Origin: Candidatus Curtissbacteria bacterium
GTDB taxonomy: Bacteria > Patescibacteriota > Microgenomatia > Curtissbacterales > GWA2-41-24
Assembly: GCA_030647775.1 (NCBI GenBank)
Contig: JAUSJC010000010.1
Location: 72,718-136,717 of the forward strand
DNA: 64,000 bases
Direction: 5' to 3'
Shown here: positions 451 through 48,699 of the stretch, one piece after another
Layout: the number at the start of each line of letters is the position of its first letter
Position numbering within the stretch: position 1 is the stretch's first letter
The notes under the pieces: model-generated
What the model saw: only the letters and a program-made list of their open reading frames with translations
The model's database searches: none
What the model was told of the DNA's origin: nothing
Made by a program: the position numbers and the translations under genes

Positions 451-532
451 AATGTTTGAATAAATACCAATACTACCAATGACAAATCAATGATTAATAA
501 TTTAATATTTAAATATTTTTCATTTCGAGCTT

Positions 533-633
533 GCGAGAAATAAGCTCTCTTATTGATTGGTACTTATTTCGAATATTTGAGAAACAAGCTCTCTTATTTC
601 AAGTTTACGAGAAACAAGCTCTCTTATTTGTTA
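533..633. repeat. Three tandem/interspersed copies of a 20-nt unit GAGAAAYAAGCTCTCTTATT plus two copies of TTGGTACTTATTT
   Basis: Copies at 535-555, 585-607, 611-633; related copies at 46006-46028 (inside nusA C-term) and 63965-63984. Confidence 0.8.
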
Positions 634-649
634 TTGGTACTTATTTTCG

Positions 650-3478: not shown

Positions 3479-3535
3479 ATTAGGCCCGCAGTCCCAAGTC
3501 TCGAAAGGACGAGGACCGCAGAGTTACTTCCTTAA

Positions 3536-5143: not shown

Positions 5144-5967
5144 ATCCCAAACAGTTTCTTAGCATTATCACCAGTTATATCACTGATCCGGTCAAATGGA
5201 AGATTGCGAAGATCGGCCAAGAATTGAGCTGTTATTCTAACATTTTTCGGTTCATTAGTCTTGCCGCGCAGGGGAACGGGGGAAAGAAAGGGGGAATCGG
5301 TCTCCACCAAAATCCTATCCTCCGGTACCATCTTGGCAACTTGGGAAATCTGCCCGGCATTTTTGAAAGTCACAATTCCGGAAAAGGAAATGTAGAATCC
5401 TAAATCAAGCGCTTTCTTTGCTTGTTCCCAGTTGCCCGTCCAGGAATGGAATACCCCTTTTTTTGTCGATCGACCAAAAAATGGGAACAATAGCGCGAAG
5501 GTGTCATCCCAAGCATTGCGACAATGGACAATCAGAGGAAGGTCAAGCTCTTTTGCCAATTTTATTTGCGCTTCAAATAGTTCTCTCTGGGCTTTTTTCT
5601 GGTCCTCACTTGTTGCCGGACCTTGATCAGTCTTTTCTAAAAAATAATCCATCCCGCATTCACCAATCCCGACAACTTTTTTCGAAGACTGCGCGACTTT
5701 TTTTAATTCATCTATAAAATTAGGTCCGTACTTTTTAATATCTTTTGGACCTTCCTGCGCGTGTATCCCGCAAGTGGCGTAAACGTTAACAAGATCCGTC
5801 CCTTCGGCTATCTCAATCGACTTTCTACTCGCATCAATCGATGTTCCGACGTTAATGATTGTCGTCACCCCGGCCTCTTTCGCCCGAAGCAGCTCGATTT
5901 TTATATCTCGAATCATACCTGCCTTGCCGGCAGGCAGGTCCAAATGGCAATGGGTATCTGTGAGCAT
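5140..5967 (-). CDS. tatD: TatD family metal-dependent hydrolase/DNase
   Basis: MLTDTHCHLD..., GECGMDY motif; 21-nt palindrome CCTGCCTTGCCGGCAGGCAGG inserted in frame at 5918-5938 (encodes LPAGKAG). Confidence 0.85.
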   Translation of the reverse strand: MLTDTHCHLDLPAGKAGMIRDIKIELLRAKEAGVTTIINVGTSIDASRKSIEIAEGTDLVNVYATCGIHAQEGPKDIKKYGPNFIDELKKVAQSSKKVVGIGECGMDYFLEKTDQGPATSEDQKKAQRELFEAQIKLAKELDLPLIVHCRNAWDDTFALLFPFFGRSTKKGVFHSWTGNWEQAKKALDLGFYISFSGIVTFKNAGQISQVAKMVPEDRILVETDSPFLSPVPLRGKTNEPKNVRITAQFLADLRNLPFDRISDITGDNAKKLFGI

Positions 5968-5968: not shown

Positions 5969-7430
5969 TTAAATTCTTGGAAATAGCGGTTTTTCTACGG
6001 AAATTTTCCCGGTGAATTGGGTCAAAATCACCTCACTGGTTTCCGGCAAAAACGGCCCTAGATTAAAAGCTATTTCGCGGATTTCTTGCGCTATCGGTGT
6101 AATTACTTTTTTCAATTTTGCCCCTTCCAATTCCCACGGCTTTTCTGCGTTGATCTTTTTATCAAGCACCGATATCTCTTCCCATAGACCGATCATTGCT
6201 TGATCAAACCGAAAGTTTTTAAGGTTCTCCAAAACCACTTTTTTAAAAGTAAAATTCTTTTTTTCGGGCAGAGCCAAGTTTGTGTCGCTTGCCAAACGTG
6301 CAACTCTTGCCACTAAATTCCCAATCCCATTTGCTAGTTCGCCGTTGTAAAGATCATGAAACCGGGTAAGCGAAAAATCCCCGTCACCCCAAGCGGGAAT
6401 TTCGCGAAGTAAATAAAACCTCACCGCCTCTTTCCCGAATTTTTCTACCAGTTCAAATGGGTCAATAACATTTCCAAGTGATTTGGAAATTTTTTGCCCT
6501 TCAACAGTTATATAACCATGGACAAATTCATCAGTTGGTAGTGGCAACCCGGCACTGGCCAACATCGCCGGCCAGTAAACGGCGTGGAAACGAATGATTC
6601 CCTTGCCAATAACGTGCAGGCGGTTTTTGTTATCGATCCAATATTTTTTATAAAGATCCTCATCTTTCCCCTCCGGGCCAGAGGCCCCTCCGGGCCGGCG
6701 GCCAAACCCAAGCGCCGTTAAATATGTAACCAGCGCATCAAACCAAACATACATAATCTGCGTTTCATCTCCCGGCACCGGTACACCCCACGAGTGTGCA
6801 CGCGCAACAGAACGGGAAATACTAAAATCTTCCAGTCCCTGGCGTATAAACGAAAGCACCTCGTGCTTTTTTGTTTGCGGGACAATTTTGAGTCTATCCG
6901 TCTGGATTAAATCGTCCAGATATTTTTGATAGTTGGAAAGTTTGAAAAAATAATTTTCTTCTTCAATCTCATCGATATTTGTATGTCCTTCCAGGCACTT
7001 GCCGTCGACGATTTCGCTGGGCGTATAAAACGCCTCACACCCCACACAATAAAGCCCCCGATAATTTTTCTTGTAAATATCTTCTTCCTTGCACAAGGAC
7101 CACAACTTTTGCGCTCCGGCAAAATGTTCTTTTGTCGCCGTTCGGTTGAAAACATCAAAGGTTAAATTTAAAGCGTCTTTTAGGCTTTCGAATCGATCCG
7201 CGTATTTTTTTACAAGAGCATCAGTCTTTACGCCCTCCGCTTCCGCCGCCTGTACATTCTTCAAAGAATTCTCATCACTCCCGGAAGAAAAGTAAACGTC
7301 ATACCCCGTCGCTCTATAAAATCTCGCCAGAGCATCCGTCTGCACAAACTCCAGTGCGTGTCCGACGTGCGGGTTGGCGTTAACATAAGGAATAGCGGTA
7401 GTAACATAAATTCGTTTCATTTTTTTCTCG
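5969..7430 (-). CDS. metG: Methionyl-tRNA synthetase
   Basis: TTAIPYVNANPHVGHA (HIGH region) and KISKSLGNV (KMSKS) motifs. ORF track extends to 7621 through two repeat elements; true start most likely MKRIY at 7430. Confidence 0.9.
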
Positions 7431-7438
7431 TCATCCCG

Positions 7439-7512
7439 AACTGACACTTGTGTCATCCCGAACTTGTTTCGGGATCTATTTTGATTCAGGATCTTTCCGA
7501 CAATTATATATT
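7439..7512. repeat. Palindromic MITE-like element, GTCATCCYGAAC...GTTCRGGATGAC family (hairpin GATCCCGAAACAAGTTCGGGATGAC)
   Basis: Nearly identical copies at 21639-21748 and 63624-63716; related copies at 17803-17858, 19381-19415, 8281-8372, 49161-49258, 52521-52608, 31332-31394, 25245-25309. Confidence 0.85.
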
Positions 7513-7600
7513 CTTCGAGTGAGTTCTGCATTGCAGAACGAATCGAGAAGTTTAGAAGTTTGAATAGTTCTCGACTTCGCTCGAACAATAAATCAATAGT
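7513..7600. repeat. MITE-like element with terminal inverted repeats CTTCGAGYGAG ... GCTCGAACAATA and internal palindrome GTTCTGCATTGCAGAAC
   Basis: Family copies at 8183-8240, 12926-12960, 18556-18660, 19246-19330, 26205-26240, 30888-30977, 35660-35754, 52497-52644, 63950-63990. Confidence 0.8.
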
Positions 7601-7615
7601 TGTACAATATAAGTA

Positions 7616-8182
7616 ATGCAAAAAGGTTTCATCGGTCCGACAATTGTCGTACTCATCGGCATTCTTGCCCTAGCTGGTCTAATTGGTCTTGCCTTTTACC
7701 TCGGCAAAAAATCCACCGGCCCAACAGCGACAACCCCTGTTGCCCAGCAAGATGAAACTACAAATTGGAAAACATACACAAGTCAAGTAACCCAGGTGGA
7801 ACTTAAATTGCCACAAGATTGGACAGAACGCCAAGAAGGCAAAACGCTTTTCTTGAAAGACAAGAAAAGCACGAGTGAGATTACAATTGTAAAAGATTTT
7901 GAAGGAGGTTTTGGGAGCAACTTGGAAGAGGCAAGGGATCCAAGGGAGATTACAATAGGCGGACAAAAAGCAACTATATATTATTATCACTCTGCCGACA
8001 ATTTTGCTGTTCTTCTTGGTGAATCCGGAACCCCAGTAGTAGATAGGGAGAACATATTTTCCAACATCTTTATCGAAAGAGGACAAGGAAACTATTTAAT
8101 TTTGGGAATGTGGAAGGCAACAGATCAGGATGCAGAAATATTACTTAACCAAATCCTCTCCACCTTCAAATTCACAAACTAG
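7616..8182 (+). CDS. Secreted/membrane-anchored protein, paralog A of a 3-member family (N-terminal signal anchor, ...GKKSTGPTATTPV..NWKTYT.. core, C-terminal QILSTFKFT)
   Basis: 188 aa; paralogs at 17882-18553 and 18698-19243 share N- and C-termini with divergent middle; -10-like element immediately upstream (leaderless-type start). Confidence 0.6.
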   Translation: MQKGFIGPTIVVLIGILALAGLIGLAFYLGKKSTGPTATTPVAQQDETTNWKTYTSQVTQVELKLPQDWTERQEGKTLFLKDKKSTSEITIVKDFEGGFGSNLEEARDPREITIGGQKATIYYYHSADNFAVLLGESGTPVVDRENIFSNIFIERGQGNYLILGMWKATDQDAEILLNQILSTFKFTN

Positions 8183-8280
8183 TTAGTTCTCGACTCATTC
8201 CGTCGAGCCAGACTCGACCCCATTCGCTCGAATAATAATCATATACCCGTTTTTTTGACGATCGCAAATTTTTTGGGTAT

Positions 8281-8372
8281 TTCAGATTCTAAAACAAGTC
8301 CAGAATGACACACTCTTAAGTCATCCTCGCGAAAGCGAGGACCTGGATTCTCGATCAGGTCGAGAATGACTA
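8281..8372. repeat. Composite palindromic repeat (AGATTCTAAAACAAGTCCAGAATGAC + GTCATCCTCGCGAAAGCGAGGAC + GTCGAGAATGAC)
   Basis: Multiple hairpins, member of GTCATYC...GAATGAC families. Confidence 0.7.
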
Positions 8373-8374
8373 TG

Positions 8375-10717
8375 CTAGTGCCCGGGGCTAGGTGAGGGTG
8401 ATGGCGAAGGTGAAGGCGGCGGCGCGCAAGATCCGCAGAAATTCTGCTTAGAATAAGGATCAACAATTACAAACTCTTCCCGCTCTTCGGCGTTTGGCGC
8501 GCCAGCCGCAACAATTTTGTTCGTTACTTTATCTACCCAAACTTTGGCTCGCACAGCAGTCGTTGTTGTCGGTTGGGTTCCGGTCAGGAAATATTCAAAA
8601 CGGCTTGGACATCCGCCGGTAACCGGGCCGCCCGTAAAAGTGCAAATTTGCGCTCCGACAACGCCGGAAGGTACCCTTAATGCTTCATTAACCTTATCTT
8701 TCAAAACAGATTTCATAATATCATTCCAAATCGGCGCGGCACCGGTTATTCCGGATGCCAGGTATTGGCTCATCGGGTGGTTATCGTTATTACCAACCCA
8801 CGTAACTACCAGAAAGCTTGGCGTGTAGCCGATTGTCCAGTTATCACGCTTGTCATCTGTCGTTCCGGTTTTAACGGCCACCGTTTTACCCGGAATTGTC
8901 AAACCGCTGAATGGCCCGAAGGCTGCCGACCTTGCGCCGTTATCCGAAAGTATTGAGGAGATTAAAAACGAAACTTCGCGCGAAAGGACTCTCTTGCCGG
9001 CCTTTGGCTTAAACTCTTCTAGAACTCGGCCATTGGAATCTTCAACTTTTAAAATCGGGGTTAAGTCTTGCCGTACGCCGTCATTGGCAAAAACCCCAAA
9101 GGCCGTTGCCATTTCTGTCATCTTTACTTCACCGCCGCCTAGTGTCAGTGAAAGTCCGTAGCGCGAGGGGTCAGTAAACGTTGTAATCCCCATTTCTCTT
9201 GCCATTTTGATCATATCCTCGACTCCCGAAATTGCCAGCACCTTAACGGCTGGAATGTTATACGAATTGGCAAGGGCAAACCGTACCTGTACCGGGCCGT
9301 GGTATTGCCCGTCGTAATTGACCGGAGTGTAGGGTTTTGTGCCGGCCACGCCAAATGTCGTCGATACATCCATAATCACCGTTGCCGGCGTTATCAACTT
9401 TTTGGAAAGTGCTGTTGCATAATTAATTGGCTTTATTGAAGAACCCGGTTGACGACTGGCAATCGTTACGTTCACATTTCCATCTATCTTCTCGTCAAAA
9501 AAATCTTTCGAACCGACCATTGCCAAAATCTCTCCGGTTGCCGGCCTTGTCACCAGTGCCGCGCCATTAGAAACATCCAGATATTTTACCGCCTCGATAT
9601 TTTTGGCAACCGCCGCTTCGGCTGAAGCCTCGATACCCAAATCTAAAGTTGTCGTTACCTTGAGTCCTCCGTGGGTTGCCACCGCGTCGCCATACTTTTG
9701 TGAAAGCCAGTCTCTTACATACATCACAAAATGCGGCGCTTTTATATCGACCGCCGAGCGTCTAAATTTCAACTCCTCGCCAGCCGCTTTTTCCTCATCC
9801 GCCTTCGTTATATAGTGCTCCTCATACATTCGCGCGAGGACAAACTTTTGCCTTTCAAGCGCCCGCTTTGGGTTTTGCCCGAAAGGTGAATAATAAGTCG
9901 GCGCCGCCGGAAGCCCCGCAAGAAGCGCCGATTCGGCCAAATCCAAATCCTTCAGATCTTTACCAAAATACTGTTGGGCCGCCGCCGATACTCCCCAGGC
10001 CGTTCCGCCATAAGGCACCTGGTTTAAGTACATCTCCAAAATCTTGTCCTTGGAAAACGCTGTTTCTACCCTAAATGCCAAATAAAGTTCCTTAATTTTT
10101 CTGGAAACTGTCCGCTCCGGTGAAAGGAACACACTCTTAACAAGTTGTTGGGTAATTGTCGATCCGCCTTGTACATTCCCCTGAAAAAGCGTTGCCCGCG
10201 CCGCGCGTATTATGCCGTAAACATCAAACCCGCGGTGTTTGTAGAAATCCTTGTCCTCCGTGGCAATCGTCGCCTTCTTTAAATTTTCGGGAACCGCCGA
10301 AAGCGAAACGATTGTCCGGTTCTGGTCCTCGTAAACGTTAAATAAAATCTTACCGTTCCTATCAAAGATTCTTGTCGTTTGCGGAATTTGTCGTGTTTCC
10401 AACTGTTTCGGACTTGGCAAATCACGTGTCAAAAACCAAACACCAAAGACAAGCAGTGCGATGGTCAAAATCCCGACTTTAAAGCTGCGGTCCTTGTAAA
10501 TAAGCGGATGGTGGCCGATCCGGACGAATATTTGCGCTTTCTTGGAAAGGTCGATGTGTACCTTTTCAAAAGCCAGCTCAATACTGTGGGAAATTGACCT
10601 GAAAATCCAAATGGTAACGTCTCCAAAAAAGCTGACCAGGAGAATAAACCAGGTCAGAAAAGAAATGACCGTACCAAAGATTAAGGAGATTAACTTGGCA
10701 AGGGGATTAAAATTCAT
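8375..10717 (-). CDS. Class A penicillin-binding protein (PBP1A; transglycosylase + transpeptidase)
   Basis: EDKDFYKHRGFD / TITQQLVK glycosyltransferase motifs; SSIKP (SxxK), KTGTT transpeptidase motifs; C-terminal (PS)5 repeat. Confidence 0.9.
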   Translation of the reverse strand: MNFNPLAKLISLIFGTVISFLTWFILLVSFFGDVTIWIFRSISHSIELAFEKVHIDLSKKAQIFVRIGHHPLIYKDRSFKVGILTIALLVFGVWFLTRDLPSPKQLETRQIPQTTRIFDRNGKILFNVYEDQNRTIVSLSAVPENLKKATIATEDKDFYKHRGFDVYGIIRAARATLFQGNVQGGSTITQQLVKSVFLSPERTVSRKIKELYLAFRVETAFSKDKILEMYLNQVPYGGTAWGVSAAAQQYFGKDLKDLDLAESALLAGLPAAPTYYSPFGQNPKRALERQKFVLARMYEEHYITKADEEKAAGEELKFRRSAVDIKAPHFVMYVRDWLSQKYGDAVATHGGLKVTTTLDLGIEASAEAAVAKNIEAVKYLDVSNGAALVTRPATGEILAMVGSKDFFDEKIDGNVNVTIASRQPGSSIKPINYATALSKKLITPATVIMDVSTTFGVAGTKPYTPVNYDGQYHGPVQVRFALANSYNIPAVKVLAISGVEDMIKMAREMGITTFTDPSRYGLSLTLGGGEVKMTEMATAFGVFANDGVRQDLTPILKVEDSNGRVLEEFKPKAGKRVLSREVSFLISSILSDNGARSAAFGPFSGLTIPGKTVAVKTGTTDDKRDNWTIGYTPSFLVVTWVGNNDNHPMSQYLASGITGAAPIWNDIMKSVLKDKVNEALRVPSGVVGAQICTFTGGPVTGGCPSRFEYFLTGTQPTTTTAVRAKVWVDKVTNKIVAAGAPNAEEREEFVIVDPYSKQNFCGSCAPPPSPSPSPSPSPGH

Positions 10718-12427: not shown

Positions 12428-12820
12428 CTATTTCTTCCCCAAATAGCTCCAAAAAGCAAAAAGCCCAACGGCTAAAATCACCCCAAATAAATTAAACAGA
12501 TTTAAAACCTGCGAGGCGGTGAGTTGGGCAACCGAAGCCACAAAAAGTGCCACGAAAAACGCCATTTTAAACGAAGTTTTAAAGTACCAACTCGGGTCAT
12601 AGCGCTTATAAAACTTTGTCCTTACAAAATAAAGCAAGCACCCAAGACCGCAAAATACAAAAGTAAATAAAAGTGCGTCAAAACCCGCGAAAATATACCA
12701 AGGCGCTTTTTGCGGGTCAAAAACCGTCACGATCCAGGCAATCCCAAAAAGCGAAGCGAATGCGGCGAGAAATGTAAAAGGCAAAAGTTGATGCATAAAT
12801 ATATTGTAACCCAGCTCCGT
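12428..12820 (-). CDS. Small hypothetical membrane protein
   Basis: 4 TM helices; ORF-track N-terminus (MPAGRSLA) is read-through of a palindromic repeat; likely start MTELGYN. Confidence 0.35.
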   Translation of the reverse strand, partial: TELGYNIFMHQLLPFTFLAAFASLFGIAWIVTVFDPQKAPWYIFAGFDALLFTFVFCGLGCLLYFVRTKFYKRYDPSWYFKTSFKMAFFVALFVASVAQLTASQVLNLFNLFGVILAVGLFAFWSYLGKK

Positions 12821-12925
12821 CATTGCGAGCGACCTGCCTGCCGGCAAGGCAGGAGCGAAGCAATCTCAAACAAGAAAGATTGCTTCGTCGCCCTGAGCGA
12901 AGTCGAAGGGCTCCTCGCAATGACA
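12821..12925. repeat. Composite palindromic element GTCATTGCGAG-[CCTGCCTGCCGGCAAGGCAGG]-GAGCGAAGCAATCTC...GATTGCTTCG-[CCCTGAGCGAAGTCGAAGGG]-CTCCTCGCAATGAC
   Basis: Outer inverted repeat GTCATTGCGAG/CTCGCAATGAC; related copies 17745-17800, 48601-48690, 19721-19803. Confidence 0.8.
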
Positions 12926-12979
12926 TCTGATAGGTTCTCGACTTCGCTCGAACGATATTCTTATGCTAAAATCCGCTAG

Positions 12980-14687: not shown

Positions 14688-17600
14688 GTGTCCAGTGTTC
14701 TCAAAGATTTAAATCCCGAACAACTTAAAGCCGTAACCACGACCGTTGGCCCGCTACTTATAATCGCCGGGGCCGGAACCGGCAAAACCGCCGTCATCGC
14801 TCACAGGATCGCCGCGATTATCGAAAAAAAACTGGCCAAGCCCTCCGAAATTCTGGCGCTAACATTTACCGACAAAGCCGCCGGCGAAATGGAAGAGCGC
14901 GTCGACATTTTAGTCCCTTACGGTTTTATCGATACCTGGATTTCTACCTTCCACGCTTTTGGCGACAGGATCCTGCGCGACAACGCCCTGGATATTGGCC
15001 TGACCCCCGATTTCAAAGTCCTTTCCCGCCCCCAGCAGGTTTTATTTTTCCAGCAAAACCTCTTTCGTTTTCAACTCGATTATTTCCGCCCGCTTTCCAA
15101 CCCCACCAAATTTATCTCCTCCATTCTTTCTTTTTTCTCCCGCTTAAAAGACGAAAACGTCAGCCCTGAGGAATTTCGGAAGTACGCTAAACGACTAATG
15201 ACCAGCGCCAAAGATCAAGAATCGAAAATCGAGGCCAAGAAGTACCAAGAGCTTGCTCAAGCCTTTGAATCTTACGAACGTTTCAAAGAAGAAGCCGGTT
15301 TTTTGGATTTTGGCGATCAGGTTGTTAAAGCAATTGAGCTATTTAAAAAGCGCCCCAAAATTCTGGCAAATTACCAAGACCAGTTTAAATATATTTTGGT
15401 TGACGAATATCAGGACACCAACTTTGCCCAAAACGAATTGGTTAAACTATTGGCCGCCCGCCACAAAAACATTTGCGTCGTCGGCGACGATGACCAATCA
15501 ATTTACAAATTCCGCGGCGCGGCAATTTCCAATATTTTGGAATTTAAAAAAACTTTCCCAAAAGCCGTGCAGGTTGTCCTTACCCAAAACTACCGTTCCA
15601 CCCAGGCAATTTTGGACAGCGCTTATAAATTGATCCGCCACAACGACCCGGATCGCTTGGAAGTCCAAAATAAAATCGACAAAAAATTGAAATCAACTGG
15701 CGGCCAGGGTATTCCGCCGCAGGAAATTTTTGCCGACACTATTTCCGAAGAAGCCGACGCGGTCGCCGGCGAAATCGAAAAGTTAATGGCAAAAAGCGTT
15801 AGTCGTTCGCCTGCCTTGCCGGCCGGCAGGTCGTTAGTCGTTAGTCGATATTCATACCGCGACTTTGCCATTCTGGTCCGCGCCAACTCCCAGGCCGATC
15901 ATTTTCTGCGGGCCCTAAACATGAAAGGCATTCCCCATAAGTTTGTCGGTTCATCCGGTCTTTACCAGCAGCCCGAGGTCAATCTTCTGATTTCTTTTCT
16001 AACTGCCATTTCTAACTTTGAAGATAGTCTGAACCTTTTTAACCTCATGACTTCCGAAATTTACGAAATGCCGGCTATCGACGCCATCAAATTAACTTCC
16101 TGGGCCAAACGTAAAAACCGTTCGCTTTTTTATATCCTTAAGAGTTTAGGGTCCGACCCTCAACCAAAAAAAGATGAAGCGTTTGAAAAGGGTCGGACCC
16201 TTGACGGCTTGGATATTTCCGGCGAATCAAAAGCCGTTGTCGAAAAACTGATTGAAGACCTAAAAGAATCAATCGAACTTTCCAAATCCCAAACTGCCGG
16301 CCGTGTGCTCTACAAATTCCTGGAAGGTGCCGGTTATCTCAAAAAGCTGGAACGTCAAAATGGAGTAGATTCTCAAATCAAAATCCAAAACATCGCCAAG
16401 TTTTTCGATAAAGTCAAAGAATTTGAAAACGTCGCCAGCCCGACATCGCCTAACGGCTCAGCGTTTGGCGGGCGGGCCAAAGTCCACACCGTTTCCCAGT
16501 TTGTCGATTATCTGGAAGCAATCCGCGGTGCCGGCGACGACCCGGCGACAGTGGAATTTGACCCGGAGACGGATGCCGTCAATGTCATGACCGTTCACGG
16601 GGCCAAAGGTCTGGAATTTCCGGTAGTTTTTATGGTCAACCTTGTTGCCGACCGTTTTCCGGTCCGTTCCCGCTCCGACGCCATCGAGGTTCCCCAAGGT
16701 CTCATTCGCGAAACTTTGCCGCAAGGAGATTGGCACCTACAGGAAGAGCGCCGCCTTTTTTATGTCGGGGCCACCCGCGCCAAAAATCTTCTCTATTTTT
16801 CCTGGTCCCGTGATGTCGGCGGCTTGCGCGCCAAGAAAATCTCCCCGTTTGTTTTGGAAGTTCTCGACAAAGCCAAATCAACAGCCGACCTTATAAAACT
16901 TTCACCGCTTGAAAAAATCGAAAAATTCGCCCCCGCCCCTCCGCGTACGACTCAACAAGTCATGTTCGATGTCGATGTCCTAAAGCTCACCCAGGGGTCA
17001 ATCGATGATTACTTAACGTGCGCCTACAAATACCGCTATATCCACATCTTGCGCATTCCCATTCTCCGCCACCACGCCATTGCCTACGGCGCGGCTCTTC
17101 ACAGTGCCGTCGGTGCTTTTCTGACATCTAAGAAAAATGGCCGCATGCTGACCATTGCCCAAACTCTGGAAGTTTTTGAAAACGCTTGGGATAGCGAAGG
17201 ATTTTTGACAATCGAACATGAAGAAAAAAGAAAAGCCGCCGGTAAACTGGCGCTGGAAAGTTTATGGAAACGCGAATCAAAAGACCCTAAACTGCCGACT
17301 CTTATCGAATCAAAATTTAATTTTTCGTTAAAAGAAGTAACAATAGTTGGCCGTTTTGATCGGGTCGATATCGGGCCCGGATCCAAAGTTCACATCATTG
17401 ATTACAAATCCTCCGAAAATATGGATCAGGAAAAGGCAAACGCCCAAGCCAAGCAGTCAAATCAATTGGCAATCTACGCTCTTTATTACTGGAAGCGCCA
17501 CAAAATTATTCCCGAAAAGTTAACGCTCCACTTTTTAGAAAACGGGGTAGAGGGAAGTTACACACCAACCGAAAAGGATTTGGAAAAAGTTGAAAAATTA

Positions 17601-17744: not shown

Positions 17745-17858
17745 CCGCCTGTCATTGCGAGGAGTTCTGCATTGCAGAACGACGAAGCAATCTCTTCATA
17801 ACCGTCATTCCGAACTTGTTTCGGAATCTAGATCCTGAAATAAATTCAGGATGACAGT
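17745..17858. repeat. Two adjacent palindromic elements (GTCATTGCGAGGAGTTCTGCATTGCAGAACGACGAAGCAATCTC and GTCATTCCGAACTTGTTTCGGAATCTAGATCCTGAAATAAATTCAGGATGAC)
   Basis: Direct reading. Confidence 0.85.
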
Positions 17859-17881
17859 AACAGTTGTATAATCAATTCACA

Positions 17882-18553
17882 ATGCAAAAACGCGGAATTA
17901 TCCTCCCACTAATCCTTATCGCAATACTCGCCATTGCCGGTTTAATCGCCCTCGGAATCTCTATTGGCAAAAAATCCTCCGGCCCAACAGCGACAAATCC
18001 GGTTGTTACAGTTCAAGCCTCACCCGTTCCATCTCCATCTCCAGATGAAACTGCAAATTGGAAAACATACACCAATAATCTTGTAAAGTTCTCTCTCAAG
18101 CTTCCGACGGATATAGAAGTAGTAGGAATAGGTATAGGGCCACCAGCGGCAATTGATGCAAGCGAAGTCATAATTTGTAGAGGTTGCAATAATTCCGTAG
18201 ACCCAGCAAAGACGCCTCTAATCTATATCCGGACGACTGAACTAAAATACACAATTTTCAAAGACATGGCTTTTTCTGGTATCGTGAAACAAAATTATGA
18301 TGCCAACATTGCCAATAAAAATAGCACCAAATCCGTTATTAAGCCACTGCAACAAATTACTTTTGCAGGAGAGCCGGCCTTTACTTATACTTTGGATAGC
18401 TCAGGCTACAGTGGCAAATATGACGGCTTTACGACTTATTCAGGCATAAACAAAATCATTGAGGTTCAACGTAATGGAATCTTTTATGTTTTTATTTATG
18501 TGCAAGATTCGACTTTTGACCAAATCCTCTCCACCTTCAGGTTCACGCAATAG
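17882..18553 (+). CDS. Secreted/membrane-anchored protein, paralog B (contains SPSPSP linker)
   Basis: Starts MQKRGIILPL...; TTGTATAAT 10 nt upstream suggests leaderless start (ORF track start 17864 is TTG inside the -10 box); C-terminal QILSTFRFTQ. Confidence 0.6.
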   Translation: MQKRGIILPLILIAILAIAGLIALGISIGKKSSGPTATNPVVTVQASPVPSPSPDETANWKTYTNNLVKFSLKLPTDIEVVGIGIGPPAAIDASEVIICRGCNNSVDPAKTPLIYIRTTELKYTIFKDMAFSGIVKQNYDANIANKNSTKSVIKPLQQITFAGEPAFTYTLDSSGYSGKYDGFTTYSGINKIIEVQRNGIFYVFIYVQDSTFDQILSTFRFTQ

Positions 18554-18555
18554 AG

Positions 18556-18660
18556 ATTGCTTCGCTTAGAGTTTCCGACTTCGCTCGCAATGACATAATT
18601 AGTTAGTTCTCGACTCGTTCTGCAATGCAGAACTTGCTCGAACAATATTGTTCGACTTTA
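18556..18660. repeat. Composite repeat (GAGATTGCTTCGCTTAG..CTCGCAATGAC + TTAGTTCTCGACTCGTTCTGCAATGCAGAACTTGCTCGAACAATA)
   Basis: Near-identical copy at 19246-19330 (tandem duplication of gene+repeat). Confidence 0.85.
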
Positions 18661-18697: not shown

Positions 18698-19243
18698 ATG
18701 TCCAAACACGGCTTCGTTGGCCCTGCAGTTGTCATCTTAGTTGCTCTCATTTCAATCGCCGGTTTAATCGCTCTTGGAATCTACATAGGCAAAAAATCCT
18801 CCGGCCCAAAGGCAACAAATCCGGTTGTTACAGTTCAAACCTCACCCGTTCCATCTTCTGATGAAACCGAAAATTGGAAGACATACACTATGAAAGATGT
18901 AAAAATCACTTTCAAATATCCCCCAGATTGGAAAATGAGTGAATACCCGGTAAACCAAAGTGGCAATTATAGTGCTCAATTTAATGGTAAAGAAGGCCGC
19001 ATAGACCTTATCTGGGGTGGAGAAGGCTATGGAGGAGCATGTCCCGGGGGATATGAAAAAATAAATTTTCTTAGTAAGAATCAAGATGTTTGTCGCTCAA
19101 TTCAGCCAAACGGCTCAGAGATTATAGGAATACTTTCGGCAACACCTGATAACACACCATTCGATATAGGCCTTACGAGTAATTCTAAGGAAAACAATGA
19201 TTTAATGCAGCAAATCCTTTCCACCTTCAAATTCACAAAGTAG
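18698..19243 (+). CDS. Secreted/membrane-anchored protein, paralog C
   Basis: 181 aa; shares N-terminal anchor, GKKSSGPKATNPVVTVQTSPVPS and C-terminal QQILSTFKFTK with paralog B. Confidence 0.6.
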   Translation: MSKHGFVGPAVVILVALISIAGLIALGIYIGKKSSGPKATNPVVTVQTSPVPSSDETENWKTYTMKDVKITFKYPPDWKMSEYPVNQSGNYSAQFNGKEGRIDLIWGGEGYGGACPGGYEKINFLSKNQDVCRSIQPNGSEIIGILSATPDNTPFDIGLTSNSKENNDLMQQILSTFKFTK

Positions 19244-19418
19244 AGATTGCTTCGCTTAGCTCGCAATGACATAATTAGTTAGTTCTCGACTCGTTCTGCA
19301 ATGCAGAACTCGCTCGAACAATATAGTTCGACCTTGCCTGCCCGTCAAAACTTTAGTGTCGTCGGGTGGAGAACTTCCAATTGACTAGATTCTGAAACAA
19401 GTTCAGAATGACAGGAAT

Positions 19419-20018
19419 ATGGTTCAGCTTTTAGTTGCTATCCTTCTCCTGATCATCATGCTTTTGCTTTTGATGATCATTGTGGGATTTTTCTTTTTTC
19501 TATTTGATATCTTTCTGGAACTTCCGTACGTTGCTACCAAACGCCATAAGATCGATACGATCATTAAATTCGCCCAGATCAAACCTGGTCAAACTGTGGT
19601 TGATCTTGGGGCAGGCGACGGCAGATTACTCATCGCCTCCGCCCAAAAAGGCGCCAATGCCATTGGCTACGAGATTAACCCGTTTTTAATTTTAATAACG
19701 AGAATCAGAGCACACTTCTTGTCATTGCGATCCGCCAGCTGGCGGAGAAGCAGTCTCAAAAGAGGAGATCACCACGGTCATCAAGATGACCTCGCGATGA
19801 CAGGGAAGGTGATTGTTTATAAATCAAACCTCTGGCGCGCCGATCTGGCCGTCGCCGATGTCGTTTTTGTCTACGGCCGCCGCAAAACCATGCAAAAATT
19901 CCAGGATTTTGTTTATAAAAACGCCAGATCTGGCACAAGAGTTATTGTCAATACAAATCCTTTTCCAAATAAAAAGTACGTTAAATCAGAAAACGGAATT
20001 TTTCTATACAAAATATAA
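19419..20018 (+). CDS. Membrane-anchored class I SAM-dependent methyltransferase (small) with in-frame palindromic-element insertion
   Basis: VVDLGAGDGRLL motif I; 19721-19803 element GTCATTGCGA...TCGCGATGAC encodes HFLSLRSASWRRSSLKRGDHHGHQDDLAMTGK in frame. Confidence 0.55.
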   Translation: MVQLLVAILLLIIMLLLLMIIVGFFFFLFDIFLELPYVATKRHKIDTIIKFAQIKPGQTVVDLGAGDGRLLIASAQKGANAIGYEINPFLILITRIRAHFLSLRSASWRRSSLKRGDHHGHQDDLAMTGKVIVYKSNLWRADLAVADVVFVYGRRKTMQKFQDFVYKNARSGTRVIVNTNPFPNKKYVKSENGIFLYKI

Positions 20019-20300
20019 TACGCATTGTCGCCTGCCCCGTAGAATTGCAGCACGAGTCGTCTATGGATAATAGTGACCTGCCCGCAATGCTACGCATAGC
20101 GTTGCAGGCGGGAAAGGCGAGTGCTAAAATTCAGTGGGGTCAACACCAACCCGTTTCCAACAAAAAAGGCTATCAAAGAAGAAAACGGCATATTTTTGTA
20201 CATCCGTTAGCCTGCCCCGTAAAATTGCAGCACGAGCCGTGTTCGGATAGAACTAAAAAGGCGAGTGCTAAAATTCATCGGGGCGTTTTTCTTTATAAAG
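19985..20300. repeat. Imperfect tandem duplication (~185 bp unit) of the methyltransferase 3' end plus downstream hairpin region
   Basis: GCCTGCCCCGTARAATTGCAGCACGAG at 20027 and 20209; AAGGCGAGTGCTAAAATTCA at 20116 and 20256; AAAACGGMATWTTT at 19990 and 20179. Confidence 0.75.
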
Positions 20301-20510
20301 TTTAACCCTACAGGCCTAGCTAAAATTGTCTCCAAAAATTAGTCCAAAAAGCAAAAGTTATTTTTTAAAACTGACCACCCAGCCACAAATATGGAAAGGT
20401 GGCTTAGTCAAAAATTAATTAAATCGTTACTAAAACCCGGGATTTTGGCATTTTTTAAAGGAGTATTTGCCAAAAAACTGTCAAAAACGACTGAAATTGC
20501 CAAAATTGGC

Positions 20511-20541
20511 AATAAAAAAAGATTTCCGCTCGGAAATCTTT
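20511..20541 (-). terminator. Rho-independent terminator for FemAB-family gene
   Basis: On minus strand hairpin AAAGATTTCCGAGCGGAAATCTTT followed by T7; second hairpin ATTGCCAATTTTGGCAAT immediately after. Confidence 0.6.
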
Positions 20542-20611
20542 AAGAGTTATCTTTTCTAATTATAACAAACCATGTCAACCATCGGCAATACAGCAAAACT
20601 ACTAGGGGATA

Positions 20612-21643
20612 TTAAAATCTGGTCGCGCGAAGTAAAAACCATCTTAGCGTGTCGGCCGCACTAAGAAGCCTATATAAAGTAGGATCTAAGACCAAATCAT
20701 ATGTTCCCACGTACTCCACGTGCCTGGCCCCATAACCAGCCTTAAATCTATGGAACCCATACCACGGGTCATTGGTGTCTGGCTCCGGGCCAAGCGCCCC
20801 CCACATATCAAATGTTTTAAGCTCTAATTTTTTACCCAGTCTGATTGCCTCCCAAGCAAGCAGGTTCGAAGCCATTACATCTTTATACTTTGTCGACGAT
20901 CCGCCATACGGGTAATATAGTGTGTCGCCAAAGCTAAAAAGCATCCAAGCCACAAGCGGTTTTTTATTGTACTTGGCGATCATTACTCGTGCCATTCTGG
21001 AATCTTTTAAAGTTTTCCAAGCCAAACGGTGATAGGTGGGTGTATGGCCAAAATATTTCTGGCGTTTGGTCGTTTCAAAGTAAAGTTTTAGGTAAATCTC
21101 AAAGTCTTTATCCTCCACCGAGTCATAAACTTCCACGCCCTTTTTCTGCGCCACTTTTATGTTGTAACGTGTCTTTGGATGCATCCCGGCCAAAATTTGC
21201 TCTTCGGATCGGGTCAAATCCAGCACGAAATTGTATTTGGTGAACAGCGCCTTCTTGGCCTTTACCAATCCTAATTTTTCTATGTTTTGAGTTTGGAGTT
21301 TTGAGTTTGGAGTTTGAATCACGTCCGGTTCAATCTTAATAAACGCCGCATTTTTCTCCCGTCCAATAGCTTCGAGCGCGTCGACCATTCCCTTATCCGG
21401 CATCGGTCCTTTTGGGAAATAGCCGATTGTCCAGTTCAGTTTTGGTACTTTATGGAATGTTAGCTGGTAAGCTTTCTTCAGGGTCCGACCCTCGAAATGC
21501 CCGACCCGCACAACGTCTACTCCAGTTTTCTTCCTAAATTCCCCCCATTCCCACGACTGGATTATATGGGAAGCTTGTTTGTCGTAAGCAGTGCGGACTT
21601 TGTCAGTCAGTATTCTGTAGGACATATACTCTTCTTCCGTCAT
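20612..21643 (-). CDS. FemAB-family peptidoglycan interpeptide-bridge aminoacyltransferase (FemX-like)
   Basis: QSWEWGEF motif, 343 aa; contains GGGTCCGACCC repeat copy (21480-21507, encodes EGRTL). Confidence 0.8.
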   Translation of the reverse strand: MTEEEYMSYRILTDKVRTAYDKQASHIIQSWEWGEFRKKTGVDVVRVGHFEGRTLKKAYQLTFHKVPKLNWTIGYFPKGPMPDKGMVDALEAIGREKNAAFIKIEPDVIQTPNSKLQTQNIEKLGLVKAKKALFTKYNFVLDLTRSEEQILAGMHPKTRYNIKVAQKKGVEVYDSVEDKDFEIYLKLYFETTKRQKYFGHTPTYHRLAWKTLKDSRMARVMIAKYNKKPLVAWMLFSFGDTLYYPYGGSSTKYKDVMASNLLAWEAIRLGKKLELKTFDMWGALGPEPDTNDPWYGFHRFKAGYGARHVEYVGTYDLVLDPTLYRLLSAADTLRWFLLRATRF

Positions 21644-21748
21644 CCTGAACTGACACCTGTGTCATCCCGAACTCGTTTCGGGATCTGTCTTGTTTCAGGA
21701 TCTTTTTTGAGATGCTGAACTGAATTCAGCATGACATGGTACTGTTGA
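21639..21748. repeat. Palindromic MITE-like element (near-identical to 7439-7512) plus GATGCTGAACTGAATTCAGCATGAC hairpin
   Basis: Direct reading; abuts femAB start codon. Confidence 0.85.
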
Positions 21749-21799
21749 TTTTAACCGATTCAACTTGCTTTTGCAGTTTAGACATACTAATCTTAAATT

Positions 21800-23622: not shown

Positions 23623-25535
23623 ATCGCTGTTACTAGCTCTTCCGGTATATCGATAATAAACCTCGAAACCAAATTGGCGCTGGTTGTTCCAAAATAAAGC
23701 CGGTTGGCGGCATAAGAAAGATAAAGTTTTTTCCTGGCCCGCGTCAGCCCCACATAGGCCAGCCGTCTCTCCTCCTCAATTTGCCCCGGGTCCAGCATGC
23801 TCCTGGAATGCGGAAACAGCCCTTCTTCCATGCCCACAATAAACACGTTATCGAATTCCAGCCCTTTGGCGGCATGAATTGTCATTAGCGTCACAAAATC
23901 TTTTTCAATCGGCAGTTCATACGATTTTTCCGGTGCCACTTTTCCTTCCATTAAAGTTACGTTTTCCAGAAACTGCGGCAAGTTCTCAAAATCCGCCGCT
24001 ACTGATTTTAATTCCTTTACGTTTTCTACCCGCGACAAACCTTCTTCCGTCCCATCATCTATAACTTTCAAATAATCCGTAGCTTCCAAAACTTTATCAA
24101 TAAGCTCGATCGGCTTGGGTAGGGTCCGACCCTCACCCACGTCATCATCGTGTTTTTTGTGCCTAGGGTCGGACCCTATGCCGCGCAGAGTTAACTTCTC
24201 GCGAAGCTCGTCGAATTTCTCAAAGCGCCTTTTGCCAAGTTTAAATGTCCTGTTTTTAGAAACCGTGTCGCGCGGATTGGCGATCAGCCTCAAATAAGCC
24301 ATTACATCTTTAACTTCTTTTCGCGCGTAAAAGCTAACGCCGCCGTAAAGTTTATAGGGAATGTTAGAGTGGAGAAACGCTTCTTCGACAGTCCTTGATT
24401 GTGCGTTTGTCCGGTACAAAATGGCAAAAGAAGAAAGCGGCAATCGCGAGCCAAAAATCCTGTCGACGATAAAGTTAGCTTCATCCACCTCGTTCATCGC
24501 GCCGTAGACGCTTATCTTTTCTCCGGTATCGTTTTGCGTCCACAGCTTTAAAACCGGATGGGAAGCATTTTGGGAAATTATTTTGTTGGCGGCCGACAAG
24601 ATATTACCCGTCGATCTGTAGTTTTGTTCAAGGTTAAAGACTTTTGCGCTCGGGAAATCGTTTTTGAAGTTTAAAATATTCCTAAAATCGGCTCCGCGGA
24701 AAGAATAAATTGCCTGCGAAGCGTCGCCGACGACCGTCAAATTTCCATGTGTCGATGCCAAAAGTTTCGTCAGTTGGTACTGGGACGTATTAACATCCTG
24801 ATATTCGTCAACTAAAACATATTCAAACCTTCCGGCCCACTTTTCCAAAATTTGAGGACTCGTTTCAAAAAGCTTGACCGTCTGCATCAGTAAATCGTCA
24901 AAATCACAGGCGTTAATCTCGAGTAGCGTCTTTTGATAAAGGTTATAAACTTTGGAAACCGTCTCCCCAAAATAACCCCGCGCAAATTGGGCGTAGTCGG
25001 AAGGCAGCAGAAGTTCTCCTTTTGCCCCGGAAATCGCGTTTAAAATTGAACTTGGCTTGAAACTTTTTGGGGGGATATCCAAATCCTTCATAATACTTTT
25101 CACCAAACTCAAACTATCACTGCTGTCATAAATCAAATAGCCGCTGGGGATCCCGATGTGTTTTCCGTCAAATCTCAAAAGCTTGGCGCAAAAGGCATGG
25201 AAGGTGCCTACGTATGGGGAGTCGTTTATCGTTAATCGATTATTGTCATTCTGGAGCGAAGCGATAGAATCTCTAGATCCTATCGTGGTCGTTGCCACTC
25301 CAGGATGACGGTGAAGGAGCTGATACACCCTCTCTTTCATTTCATTGGCCGCTTTATTGGTGAACGTCACGGCTATAATGTTTGAAGGCTTTATTCCCTT
25401 GGAAATTAAATACGCCACTTTATACGTCAAGACTCTCGTCTTCCCACTACCGGCTCCGGCCATAATCAAAACCGGCCCTTCGGTAGCCAAAACCGCTTCC
25501 TTCTGTGCCGGGTCAAGGTCTTTCAAAATATCCAT
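23619..25535 (-). CDS. pcrA: UvrD/PcrA/Rep-family DNA helicase
   Basis: MAGAGSGKTRVLT Walker A, TFTNKAANEM, VDEYQD, canonical SF1 motifs; in-frame insertions at 25245-25309 and 24118-24178. Confidence 0.9.
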   Translation of the reverse strand: MDILKDLDPAQKEAVLATEGPVLIMAGAGSGKTRVLTYKVAYLISKGIKPSNIIAVTFTNKAANEMKERVYQLLHRHPGVATTTIGSRDSIASLQNDNNRLTINDSPYVGTFHAFCAKLLRFDGKHIGIPSGYLIYDSSDSLSLVKSIMKDLDIPPKSFKPSSILNAISGAKGELLLPSDYAQFARGYFGETVSKVYNLYQKTLLEINACDFDDLLMQTVKLFETSPQILEKWAGRFEYVLVDEYQDVNTSQYQLTKLLASTHGNLTVVGDASQAIYSFRGADFRNILNFKNDFPSAKVFNLEQNYRSTGNILSAANKIISQNASHPVLKLWTQNDTGEKISVYGAMNEVDEANFIVDRIFGSRLPLSSFAILYRTNAQSRTVEEAFLHSNIPYKLYGGVSFYARKEVKDVMAYLRLIANPRDTVSKNRTFKLGKRRFEKFDELREKLTLRGIGSDPRHKKHDDDVGEGRTLPKPIELIDKVLEATDYLKVIDDGTEEGLSRVENVKELKSVAADFENLPQFLENVTLMEGKVAPEKSYELPIEKDFVTLMTIHAAKGLEFDNVFIVGMEEGLFPHSRSMLDPGQIEEERRLAYVGLTRARKKLYLSYAANRLYFGTTSANLVSRFIIDIPEELVTAI

Positions 25536-25626: not shown

Positions 25627-26208
25627 ATGGTAGGAGTCGGTGGAGAACCAATACCCGGAGCAAACGGAGATCAGGCCGAACCAGGAAATGAGGCTCCAGT
25701 CGCTTCAGAAAGAACCGAAGAACAGCAAAAGGTCGAAGCCCTGTTTGATAAAGTAAGTGAGGTAAATCAACAACTGGATGGAGGACTTGCGTATGATATT
25801 CAGGTAAGCGATGGCACATCTCTTCTTCTATTTAGGGCGGTTGGGAGCCAGGCTGGACACCTGTATGGTGCGCATTCAAATGAAGGCCCAGTTTGTCTTA
25901 CAGATACGGCAAAACATAAAAATGATTTCTTGGGTCCTGGTGCTTGGTATGCTCGCCTGCCTGAGGGTTTCAAAACAGGTGAGAAAAAGTTAGACCCCAC
26001 AGACTACTTTCCAGTTTCAGGTGACCATGAAGAGTGGCAGAAAGCGTTTACCAGTTCAAGAGACTCCATACTTAGAGATCGAGTGGAAATAGAAAGAATT
26101 AGAGCTAAAAGAACTAAGAGCTTAGACCAAGCGCTTGATATTGTCTCCAAGCCTGTTGATATTAACGCACCTCCCCCTGCAGTCGGTCCTGCTCCTCAAG
26201 GCAGTTAG
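25627..26208 (+). CDS. Hypothetical soluble protein (compositionally atypical)
   Basis: 193 aa, no TM, G/E/P-rich, no family recognised. Confidence 0.3.
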   Translation: MVGVGGEPIPGANGDQAEPGNEAPVASERTEEQQKVEALFDKVSEVNQQLDGGLAYDIQVSDGTSLLLFRAVGSQAGHLYGAHSNEGPVCLTDTAKHKNDFLGPGAWYARLPEGFKTGEKKLDPTDYFPVSGDHEEWQKAFTSSRDSILRDRVEIERIRAKRTKSLDQALDIVSKPVDINAPPPAVGPAPQGS

Positions 26209-26240
26209 TTAGTTCTCGACAAGCTCGAACAATAATTTTA

Positions 26241-26275
26241 GGCTAGTTTACTAGCCCCATGGCACTGTATATAAT
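26241..26275 (+). promoter_or_regulatory. Consensus-like sigma70 promoter module CTAGTTTACTAG-CCCATGGCACTGTA-TATAAT (palindrome over -35)
   Basis: -35 TTTACT, 17-nt spacer, -10 TATAAT at 26270-26275; ATG of trxA at 26283 (leaderless). Confidence 0.6.
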
Positions 26276-26282
26276 TACAGCT

Positions 26283-34266: not shown

Positions 34267-34283
34267 CCTTGATCTTAGTTCAT

Positions 34284-48597: not shown

Positions 48598-48600
48598 ATA

Positions 48601-48690: not shown

Positions 48691-48699
48691 AATAGTAGT

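Follow-up and report, generated by a model that had tools for sequence, protein, structure and literature searches.

CGTC-tagged palindromic repeats as the probable core of an apparently recent colonization of a Candidatus Curtissbacteria chromosome by small hairpin-forming DNA modules

CGTC-tagged repetitive extragenic palindromic sequences (REPs), described as families CGTC-1 to CGTC-4, consist of an unpaired CGTC or TGTC (also CCTC) tag, an 8-9 bp stem starting with AT, a loop of 4-5 nt and a 3-nt tail with the consensus CCA (Di Nocera, De Gregorio & Rocco 2013, BMC Genomics 14:522). They occur mainly as head-to-head dimers, with heterodimers in the family that has an 8-bp stem and a 5-nt loop (CGTC-2), they include intragenic copies, among others in helicase and tRNA-synthetase genes, and they have no associated transposase (BMC Genomics 14:522). 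The class, which includes the Rickettsia palindromic elements RPE-4 and RPE-6 and the Neisseria dRS3 repeat (a CGTC-1 unit), was reported in five phyla, the candidate phyla radiation (CPR) not being among them (BMC Genomics 14:522). Here we analyze a 64,000-nt stretch of the chromosome of a Candidatus Curtissbacteria bacterium, a member of the CPR (Patescibacteria); this whole stretch is referred to as the window, and all positions are window coordinates. We consider it probable that this chromosome was recently colonized by a community of tiny, hairpin-forming, non-coding selfish DNA modules, with CGTC-tagged REPs as their core.

Five interlocking repeat families had been described in the window from the letters of the sequence (hereafter, the original prediction), and we keep their numbers. 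Judged by its sequence, family 1 is a CGTC-tagged REP as defined in the literature. The window has 11 exact matches to the pattern GTCATBCYGAA-N5-TTCRGVATC, where 100 shuffles have none, and holds about 20 GTC-anchored hairpins, of which shuffles have about 1.6 on average. The GTC tag is present in 13/13 window units, preceded by T in 10, C in 2 and A in 1, and 12 of the 13 have an 8-bp stem opening with AT (A:T, then T:A) and a 5-nt loop (CTTGT, CTCGT, TTTAT and similar); the unit at 49261 deviates, with a 7-bp stem and an 8-nt loop. The tail is CTA in 6 units, CTG in 2 and CCG, CTT, CTC or CCA in 1 each. Six stem variants occur, every one of them perfectly paired. The dimers, mostly head-to-head, combine two different stems and are bounded by GTCAT...ATGAC; those with differing stems lie at 17803-17857, 21661-21735, 31332-31392, 52526-52607 and 63646-63714. 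Furthermore, three near-identical 76-nt composites (7419-7494, 21628-21703 and 63613-63688; 86% alike) each consist of a complete unit within the loop of another unit. When folded as single-stranded DNA (ssDNA), regions with CGTC and family 2 elements reach z = -3.9 to -4.5 relative to shuffles. The family 1 elements are as follows (here and below a strand is given where one was assigned, and the sister genome is assembly GCA_041643115.1).

7419-7494, plus strand: composite CGTC element, outer unit GTCATCCCGAAC..TTCAGGATC, inner unit at 7452-7476 in its loop
8284-8372: three diverged CGTC-type units (8284-8310, 8320-8343, 8346-8370)
17803-17857: minimal CGTC head-to-head heterodimer, 52 nt; z = -4.5 for 17749-17857
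19385-19414, minus strand: single CGTC unit, 6 nt upstream of the start codon at 19419
21628-21737: composite CGTC element (21628-21703) with an inverted partner unit (21711-21735)
49236-49262, minus strand: single CGTC unit, 11 nt upstream of the pnp start; missing in the sister genome
63613-63716: composite nested CGTC element with an inverted partner; compared with the sister genome, about 112 nt are inserted here

The family 1 copies of the original prediction agree with these in the three near-identical elements and at 8284, 17804, 19388, 25245, 31333 and 52526; the copy it placed at 49161 is a different palindrome (Q, 49165-49197), the true unit there being that at 49236-49262.

The window is an ordinary housekeeping part of the chromosome, encoding methionyl-tRNA synthetase (MetRS), a class A penicillin-binding protein, RmuC, two UvrD-type helicases, LepA, HrcA-GrpE-DnaK-DnaJ, NusA-IF2, S15-PNPase, FtsK, alanyl-tRNA synthetase (AlaRS) and RuvX. 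At least 12 of the 60 genes of the window, or about one in five, carry repeats in frame, in a member of the CPR, whose genomes are small, as seen against sister orthologs and/or solved homologs. These in-frame copies, which the original prediction had missed together with the published superfamily of family 1, involve several families and are listed below. Beyond its five, the window also has the families E, P, Q, X, Y and F6; T2b and T2a are the two related halves of which family 2 is made.

5915-5942: P palindrome (CCTGCCTTGCCGGCAGGCAGG) in TatD, residues 11-17 (LPAGKAG), directly after the HxH motif; missing in the sister ortholog
6671-6706: GGCCCGGAGGGGCC twice, in MetRS, residues 240-250; missing in the sister ortholog
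15806-15836: P palindrome in a UvrD/PD-(D/E)XK helicase-nuclease; extra residues relative to PcrA (1pjr)
16146-16203: family 5 pair (GGGTCCGACCC .. GGGTCGGACCC) in the UvrD/PD-(D/E)XK helicase-nuclease
24119-24179: family 5 pair in UvrD, residues 452-469; missing in the sister ortholog
25243-25311: CGTC/family-3-like head-to-head dimer in UvrD, about residues 74-106; missing in the sister ortholog and in PcrA; folds as a single long hairpin (z = -4.3)
30879-30975, plus strand: T2b+T2a dimer in LepA, residues 63-91; missing in T. thermophilus EF4 and in the closest relatives
31332-31392: CGTC head-to-head heterodimer in LepA, residues 212-231
35089-35205, plus strand: three 27-nt E units (CCGAAGRCCCTGAGCRMAGTCGAAGGG) at two sites in the GrpE N-terminus; missing in the sister ortholog
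52954-52998: P palindrome with an extension, in a Lon-like AAA protein, residues 104-118; missing in the sister ortholog
57290-57316, plus strand: E unit in a YtxH-like protein, residues 67-75; missing in the sister ortholog
58349-58414, plus strand: family 4 unit with X at its apex, in AlaRS, residues 249-270; missing in the sister ortholog and in AlaRS 9jc7

In the AlphaFold model of LepA, pLDDT is below 50 at residues 66-95 and 211-228, and the two inserts are the model's only two long low-confidence coils, flanked by strands and helices that are well predicted. Repeat sequence also encodes the C-terminus of RuvX, the element at 63613-63716 supplying the final 4 codons of ruvX together with its stop codon. 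Further copies lie in the tails of NusA and of the open reading frame (ORF) 47623-48597, and within ORF 19419-20018. Gene models are affected, too, in that the repeats produce spurious N-terminal extensions: the NCBI model of MetRS (5969-7621, minus strand) has 495 residues and starts within a CGTC repeat, whereas MetRS orthologs have 472 residues and the conserved N-terminus begins at 7420, and the start of ORF 12428-12847 also lies within a repeat.

The sister assembly provides three stretches syntenic with the window (L325, L202 and L327; 61 kb in total), with orthologs at 88-94% amino acid identity. Of 12 module patterns counted in these 61 kb, T4 gave one match and F6 two, and the ten others gave zero, against dozens of module matches in the corresponding parts of the window. 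Because the sister genome is nearly free of the repeats, their expansion in the lineage of the window appears to be recent. In a tree of LepA the window protein nests in a clade whose other members are without both inserts. The grpE and dnaK genes, which overlap in the sister genome, are separated in the window by a family 2 dimer (35652-35746). The recent activity that the original prediction had proposed is thus borne out, nearly all copies being missing from a genome of about 90% amino acid identity across 61 kb of synteny.

The remaining families differ in architecture. Family 3 (GTCATTGCGAG..GAAGCAATC) has the tag and the AT-opening stem of family 1, with a short stem and a variable apex, and is a second widespread CGTC-type unit. 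In family 2, the outer ends of the T2b and T2a halves form 11-bp inverted repeats that match at 10/11 positions, and the G/C differences between the halves are compensatory; families 1, 3, 4 and 5 are without such a terminal inverted repeat (TIR) architecture. P, Q and X are perfect palindromes, X of 17 nt (GTTCTGCATTGCAGAAC) and Q of 16 nt (TCCGCCAGCTGGCGGA). The segment 7439-7600 alone holds three elements (7419-7494, 7508-7552 and 7565-7592). The elements not yet listed are given below.

505-646, plus strand: F6, three copies TTATTTCGAG..CGAGAAACAAGCTCTCTTAT; not on the list of the original prediction
3482-3521, plus strand: family 4 unit GGCCCGCAG-apex-GAGGACCGCAG, between two minus-strand genes
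7508-7552, plus strand: family 2 half T2b, TATTCTTCGAG..TCGAGAAGTT, X at its apex; z = -3.9 for 7505-7595
7565-7592, plus strand: family 2 half T2a, TAGTTCTCGAC..CTCGAACAATA; with 7508-7552 it makes an element with 11-bp inverted ends
8183-8243, plus strand: T2a with cargo, beginning directly after the stop codon of 7616-8182
12818-12926: family 3 head-to-head dimer, P at the apex of the left unit and E at that of the right
12932-12959, plus strand: T2a unit
17749-17796, plus strand: family 3 unit GTCATTGCGAGGAG-X-GACGAAGCAATCTC
18554-18650: family 3 right half, then T2a with X; duplicated with the neighboring gene
19244-19326: duplicate of 18554-18650, from the tandem gene duplication
19720-19757, plus strand: family 3-like unit with Q at its apex, within ORF 19419-20018
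26205-26236, plus strand: minimal T2a (TTAGTTAGTTCTCGACAAGCTCGAACAATAAT), overlapping the stop codon of 25627-26208
35652-35746, plus strand: T2b+T2a dimer with Y as cargo in the T2a loop, between grpE and dnaK
45850-46013, plus strand: E-like and F6 copies in the C-terminal tail of NusA, beyond the KH domains
48480-48692, plus strand: E-like copy in the ORF 47623-48597 tail, followed by a family 3 unit whose apex is X-like and whose right half is degenerate
49165-49197: Q palindrome at the apex of the native rpsO-pnp leader hairpin
52499-52641, plus strand: family 2 element T2b..T2a around the CGTC head-to-head dimer 52526-52607, the second loop of which holds further cargo
53770-53842, plus strand: family 4 unit with a large apical cargo
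63933-63981, plus strand: F6 copy

In total, 51 elements account for 2,576 bp (4.0% of the window); their share is 29% among intergenic and 1.6% among coding bases, and the similarity between copies in the window is 86-100%. All five families of the original prediction are found at or near the places it gave, far above chance, and its view that such a load, with several distinct families interleaved and nested, is unusual for a small genome holds. Its family 2 is recovered at 7508, 18598, 19274, 26205, 30879, 35652 and 52499, the copy it had placed at 63950 belonging to F6; family 3 lies at 12818-12926, 17749, 48605 and 19720, family 4 at 3482, 53770 and 58349, and family 5 as pairs at 16149/16190 and 24122/24166 with a single copy at 21481. 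Two of its statements went too far: a share of 29% is a heavy load on intergenic space but does not amount to dominating it, and the elements, said to end exactly at start codons in many cases, end about 6-30 nt from starts, or else supply or abut stop codons. No Rfam family matched anywhere in the window at gathering thresholds, permissive Rfam searches of 7380-8400 and 19900-20700 returned only a chance match to U2, ARAGORN found no tRNA or tmRNA in the window, and a literature search with the raw repeat sequence yielded only coincidental primer matches.

The placement of the modules relative to each other follows a simple regularity. X occurs at 5 sites, every time at the apex of a family 2, 3 or 4 hairpin. 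In the family 3 dimer at 12818-12926, one half has P at its apex and the other has E. Y lies in a family 2 loop in the window; in another Curtissbacteria lineage (L124/L125) it is found within LepA, in a CGTC unit's loop. The most telling case of nesting is the rpsO-pnp leader, a plain native hairpin (GTGAATCAAC-ATT-TGGTTCAC) in the sister genome that in the window has Q inserted at its tip. The nesting of a type-1 within a type-2 element at 52499-52641, already recognized in the original prediction, is borne out, and loci of Falkowbacteria and Zixibacteria likewise have one unit nested in another. C-GAA-G triloops recur at the apices, and CGNAGC is the commonest family 3 interior (59/177 viral copies, see below). 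The d(GCGNAGC) sequence is a classic ultra-stable DNA mini-hairpin, and these triloops and interiors therefore point to structure in ssDNA rather than in RNA.

The core units are not confined to this lineage. In species-representative genomes (a 596-Gb collection, for which we estimate about 40 chance matches collection-wide), the 25-nt family 1 unit, with compensatory stem changes, is present at at least 120 loci in many phyla. The loci listed span Sphingomonadaceae, Bacteroidota, Treponema, Melainabacteria, Nitrospirota, Elusimicrobiota and several CPR groups, and one complete Sphingomonas chromosome, from an isolate, is among the genomes. Among the genome matches listed, both variable stem positions are complementary in 155/163, for which chance would give 1 in 6. 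The unit is also found in more than 120 viral contigs, with both positions complementary in 159/170 matches (chance again 1 in 6); 87 of these 170 copies have C ahead of GTC and 61 have T, and their tails include CTC (52) and CCA (46). Family 3 is likewise present in more than 120 viral contigs. X gave 10 matches to viral contigs, about the chance number by our own estimate, and the family 2 pattern gave zero there and only a handful of loci elsewhere outside the window; families 2, 4 and X look lineage-specific. Copies are thus abundant beyond the window, in other genomes as well as in phages, in agreement with the original prediction.

Phages may be vehicles or major habitats of the CGTC units. 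The viral contigs L253 and L261 (IMG/VR) carry as many as 17 CGTC-type hairpins within 13 kb, with several types of stem and on a single strand throughout; the contig with 17 such units is that of a terminase-encoding phage (L253). Arrays of family 3 in other viral contigs (L352, L372) are one-stranded as well. A CGTC unit next to dRS3-like units lies in a contig of a metagenome-assembled genome (MAG) of Nanoarchaeota, within DPANN (L042, 2672-2800), which could reflect either cross-domain spread or a binning error.

In the window, every asymmetric family is strictly oriented (plus/minus: T2a 9/0, E 6/0, F6 5/0, T4 3/0, T2b 3/0, nested composite 3/0), and GC skew has one sign over the whole window. 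The T4 copy at 3485 and the F6 copies at 505-646 sit among minus-strand genes, so that orientation there tracks the DNA strand and not transcription. Transposition of the single-strand IS200/IS605 type is strand-biased, and IS200/IS605 and REP/RAYT elements (RAYT, REP-associated tyrosine transposase) are thought to move as ssDNA hairpins. By analogy, the modules would spread as ssDNA hairpins, in a manner probably linked to replication and strand-specific, with the assistance of a trans-acting, hairpin-recognizing nuclease/ligase encoded elsewhere, which might be HUH/Y1-like or of a kind not yet described. Insertion would prefer exposed single-stranded positions such as hairpin loops, and selection would then retain only harmless copies, intergenic or in frame in surface loops and protein tails; regulatory effects on neighboring genes would be secondary. 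A wider proposal, which we regard as doubtful, is that CGTC hairpins and satellite palindromes form one pan-prokaryotic, phage-borne system that pastes modules of 17-60 nt specifically into the single-stranded apices of existing DNA hairpins, those of the modules themselves and native regulatory ones included, in a strand-specific and replication-linked way by means of an enzyme not encoded beside the repeats.

Several observations weigh against recent colonization by mobile hairpin modules, or against parts of the mechanism outlined. Most of the plus-oriented copies also lie in plus-strand transcription units, and a replication bias is separated from a transcription bias only by the T4 copy at 3485 and the F6 copies at 505-646. 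Single units in other genomes favor neither orientation with respect to genes (6 versus 8), so the one-strand phage arrays do not reflect a general transcription-linked rule. No transposase or HUH gene is present among the 60 ORFs of the window, and when ORFs within 1.5 kb of units were clustered in search of a REPtron-like gene, no recurrent gene family emerged near units in the 120 genome loci listed; the largest neighbor cluster comprised four loci, and one of its members begins like a glutamine amidotransferase, this cluster not having been scanned against Pfam. At the LepA, GrpE, grpE/dnaK, ruvX and pnp junctions, compared with the sister genome, no clear target-site duplication and no conserved target motif could be recognized, and no insertion or excision event was directly observed. 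Lineages other than the sister carry different CGTC dimers at the same LepA position, which could mark an insertion hot spot or could stem from recombination instead of repeated insertion. Finally, E arrays and family 4 fold no better than shuffles (z = -0.4 for the GrpE E units), and not every module is a hairpin.

The original prediction regarded the repeats as miniature transposable elements with inverted repeats (MITEs), that is, deletion derivatives of insertion sequences (ISs) moved via their TIRs by a DDE or a TnpA/TnpB transposase, and named, as an example, a TnpB-type partner of the IS200/IS605 kind. We consider this unlikely for the set as a whole. Family 2 does have the right form, with 11-bp imperfect inverted ends (TATTCTTCGAG..CTCGAACAATA), a start and finish with TA around variable cargo, a size of 85-145 bp and dispersed copies, and for family 2 only, where no parent IS lends support, the idea is plausible. 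The core units, however, are 25-nt hairpins with an unpaired tag and not TIR elements, and they belong to a class without an associated transposase; no IS and no transposase family was recognized among the 60 ORFs of the window. The target-site duplications that the original prediction had suggested looking for are not clear at any of the five junctions compared with the sister genome, the sole candidate being a 2-nt GG ambiguity at one GrpE site. The absence of family 2 from viral contigs and its few other loci leave no parent element visible, and the homing mechanism offered as a further option finds no support.

The copies could also arise and be homogenized without a dedicated enzyme, through general replication and repair processes acting on hairpins, such as template switching, hairpin-primed synthesis or gene conversion between copies, the conservation of the unit then reflecting constraint by a universal host factor. 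Such a process would be in keeping with the lack of a dedicated transposase for the class in any genome or beside the units here, with a unit that barely differs between Sphingomonas, CPR, DPANN and phages, with apices that look exchanged rather than simply inserted, and with homotypic unit-in-unit nesting in three phyla. We nevertheless find it rather improbable, since local template switching cannot explain the identical 17-nt X and 16-nt Q in unrelated hosts and flanks, and a burst in one lineage and not in its sister suggests a gained activity.

The position of many copies, just past stop codons or just ahead of starts, might instead suggest host-selected regulatory hairpins (terminators, mRNA stabilizers or protein-binding sites) copied by recombination or arisen by convergence; in other genomes the unit lies between convergent genes at 25 sites and between divergent genes at 2, and REPs elsewhere were reported to influence mRNA stability and termination. 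As a primary explanation this is quite improbable: the repeats are nearly missing from a sister genome with the same operons, they lie in frame within at least 12 coding sequences and also in the divergent promoter regions 7421-7615 and 21644-21799, no T-run follows the hairpins and no Rfam family matches, and the apical triloops are of the DNA-stable type. Secondary regulatory effects on neighboring genes are nonetheless likely. Integron attC sites, CRISPR repeats, intrinsic terminators and group II intron targets were also considered and dropped, as the motif of GTC tag and AT stem, the spacing and the lack of T-runs do not suit them. That the repeats are an artifact, from mis-assembly of a MAG or from segmental duplication of gene neighborhoods, is extremely improbable and effectively refuted: the source is a MAG, short-read contigs do break at repeats and one pair (18554-18650/19244-19326) does belong to a tandem gene duplication, but parts of the window sequence recur in Logan contigs that were assembled independently from SRR13727527, the inserts preserve reading frames in conserved genes, the flanks of all other copies are unrelated, and units occur in isolate genomes, including the complete Sphingomonas chromosome.

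Three paralogous genes for PsbP_2-like lipoproteins (7616-8182, 17864-18553 and 18698-19243) are each flanked by repeat modules, and one of them has a half of a family 3 head-to-head dimer on either side. The 7616 locus holds an abhydrolase gene, and not the PsbP_2-like gene, in the sister genome. Repeats in such positions may shuffle or carry whole genes. Beside uvrD, the sister genome has a LAGLIDADG_3 homing-endonuclease-like ORF (L202, 4229-5086), at a place where the window has an unrelated ORF of 193 residues.

The window holds other repeated sequences. A non-palindromic motif, CCCAAATTCCCCGCTCGATTTT, recurs at the boundaries of small genes (39699, 40421, 41317, 41931, 42651, 43439 and 44280); its clearest copies (41317 and 42651) lie just upstream of extended -10 promoter-like boxes (TGATATAAT), and it looks like a shared operator or UP-like element of a local regulon. 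A small hairpin (CCAGTTTACTGG) followed by GCATGGCACTGTATATAAT is found upstream of trx, alaS and ORF 60288 (26243-26281, 57532-57599 and 60244-60282) and is kept in the sister genome (L202, about 5440-5505); it is probably a terminator-plus-promoter cassette unrelated to the palindromic repeats. Direct repeats of octamers similar to AATTCGGA, at 28356-28396, 34283-34320 and 59433-59520, may form a putative protein-binding array; the hrcA leader set, which has a CIRCE-like inverted repeat upstream of it (TTAGCACTC-N9-TACTGCTAA, about 34236), is kept in the sister genome. Finally, a direct repeat of about 100 nt (GCCTGCCCCGTARAATTGCAGCACGAG...AAAGGCGAGTGCTAAAATTCA) at 20030-20140 and 20210-20280, within a gene-free stretch of 593 nt and with no Rfam match, may be a duplicated small RNA or a remnant.

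The repeats also matter in practice, as they break short-read assemblies, mislead start-codon calls and inflate the apparent novelty of proteins in CPR genomes. An independent short-read Logan contig of SRR13727527 (L323, of the same run as L324) stops 20 nt past ruvX, where the CGTC composite begins, and such repeats probably fragment CPR assemblies generally. CGTC REPs have been known for more than a decade, and to our knowledge neither the way in which they move nor the enzyme that mobilizes them has been established. Apex-of-hairpin placement and single-strand orientation are testable regularities, and the pair of a repeat-rich and a near-clean genome (about 1 Mb each) is a natural experiment in which a comparison of gene content could name the mobilizing activity. 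If there is indeed one pan-prokaryotic system, the responsible gene or phage would be among a handful of lineage-specific genes, and the question of the CGTC REP and RPE mobilizer would become answerable.

Among described systems, the CGTC REPs share with the elements of the window the tag, the AT stem, the 5-nt loop, the presence of a short tail, the heterodimers, the lack of a neighboring transposase and the copies in helicase and tRNA-synthetase genes, and the unit occurs in Sphingomonadales, Bacteroidota and Spirochaetes in both cases. The differences are the CPR host and the units in Nanoarchaeota and phage contigs, a 3-nt tail whose sequence is here shifted from the consensus CCA, mostly to CTA, and the very high in-frame density together with systematic apex nesting with lineage-specific palindromes; in our literature search no paper tied the CPR to CGTC-type repeats. 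RPEs, too, are palindromic repeats found in frame in housekeeping proteins of small genomes and tolerated in loops (Ogata et al. 2000, as cited in PMC3733652), their tie in sequence to the window being the published statement that RPE-4 and RPE-6 are CGTC-type. RPE-1 is about 100-150 bp long and Rickettsia-specific, whereas many module types of 17-60 nt are present here, and the near-clean sister genome shows recent spread.

Bacterial interspersed mosaic elements (BIMEs) of E. coli and the Neisseria intergenic mosaic elements (NIMEs) with dRS3 resemble the window in that their intergenic clusters are mosaics, made of hairpin units in alternation with further short motifs, but here the modules are nested within loops, not merely juxtaposed, and they also enter coding sequences. 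With the REP/REPIN-RAYT systems the repeats have in common short tagged hairpins, inverted doublets, suspected single-strand mobilization and in-frame copies in genes; the tag is (Y)GTC here and GTAG (GT[AG]G) there, and no RAYT (Y1 HUH) gene is found in the window or beside the units in 120 loci. IS200/IS605 elements and their derivatives without a transposase, the palindrome-associated transposable elements (PATEs), offer a further parallel, as IS200/IS605 have hairpin ends in place of TIRs, no target duplication and strand-biased ssDNA insertion, and the window has a strict orientation bias; however, no TnpA/TnpB and no conserved target tetranucleotide are found in the window, and the elements here are 10-50x smaller. 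The core superfamily is thus already known, and nesting (in BIME and NIME mosaics) and in-frame insertion (in RPEs) have precedents, while new features here are the phylum of the host, how densely essential proteins are decorated, the clean contrast to the sister genome, the apex rule and the strand rule.

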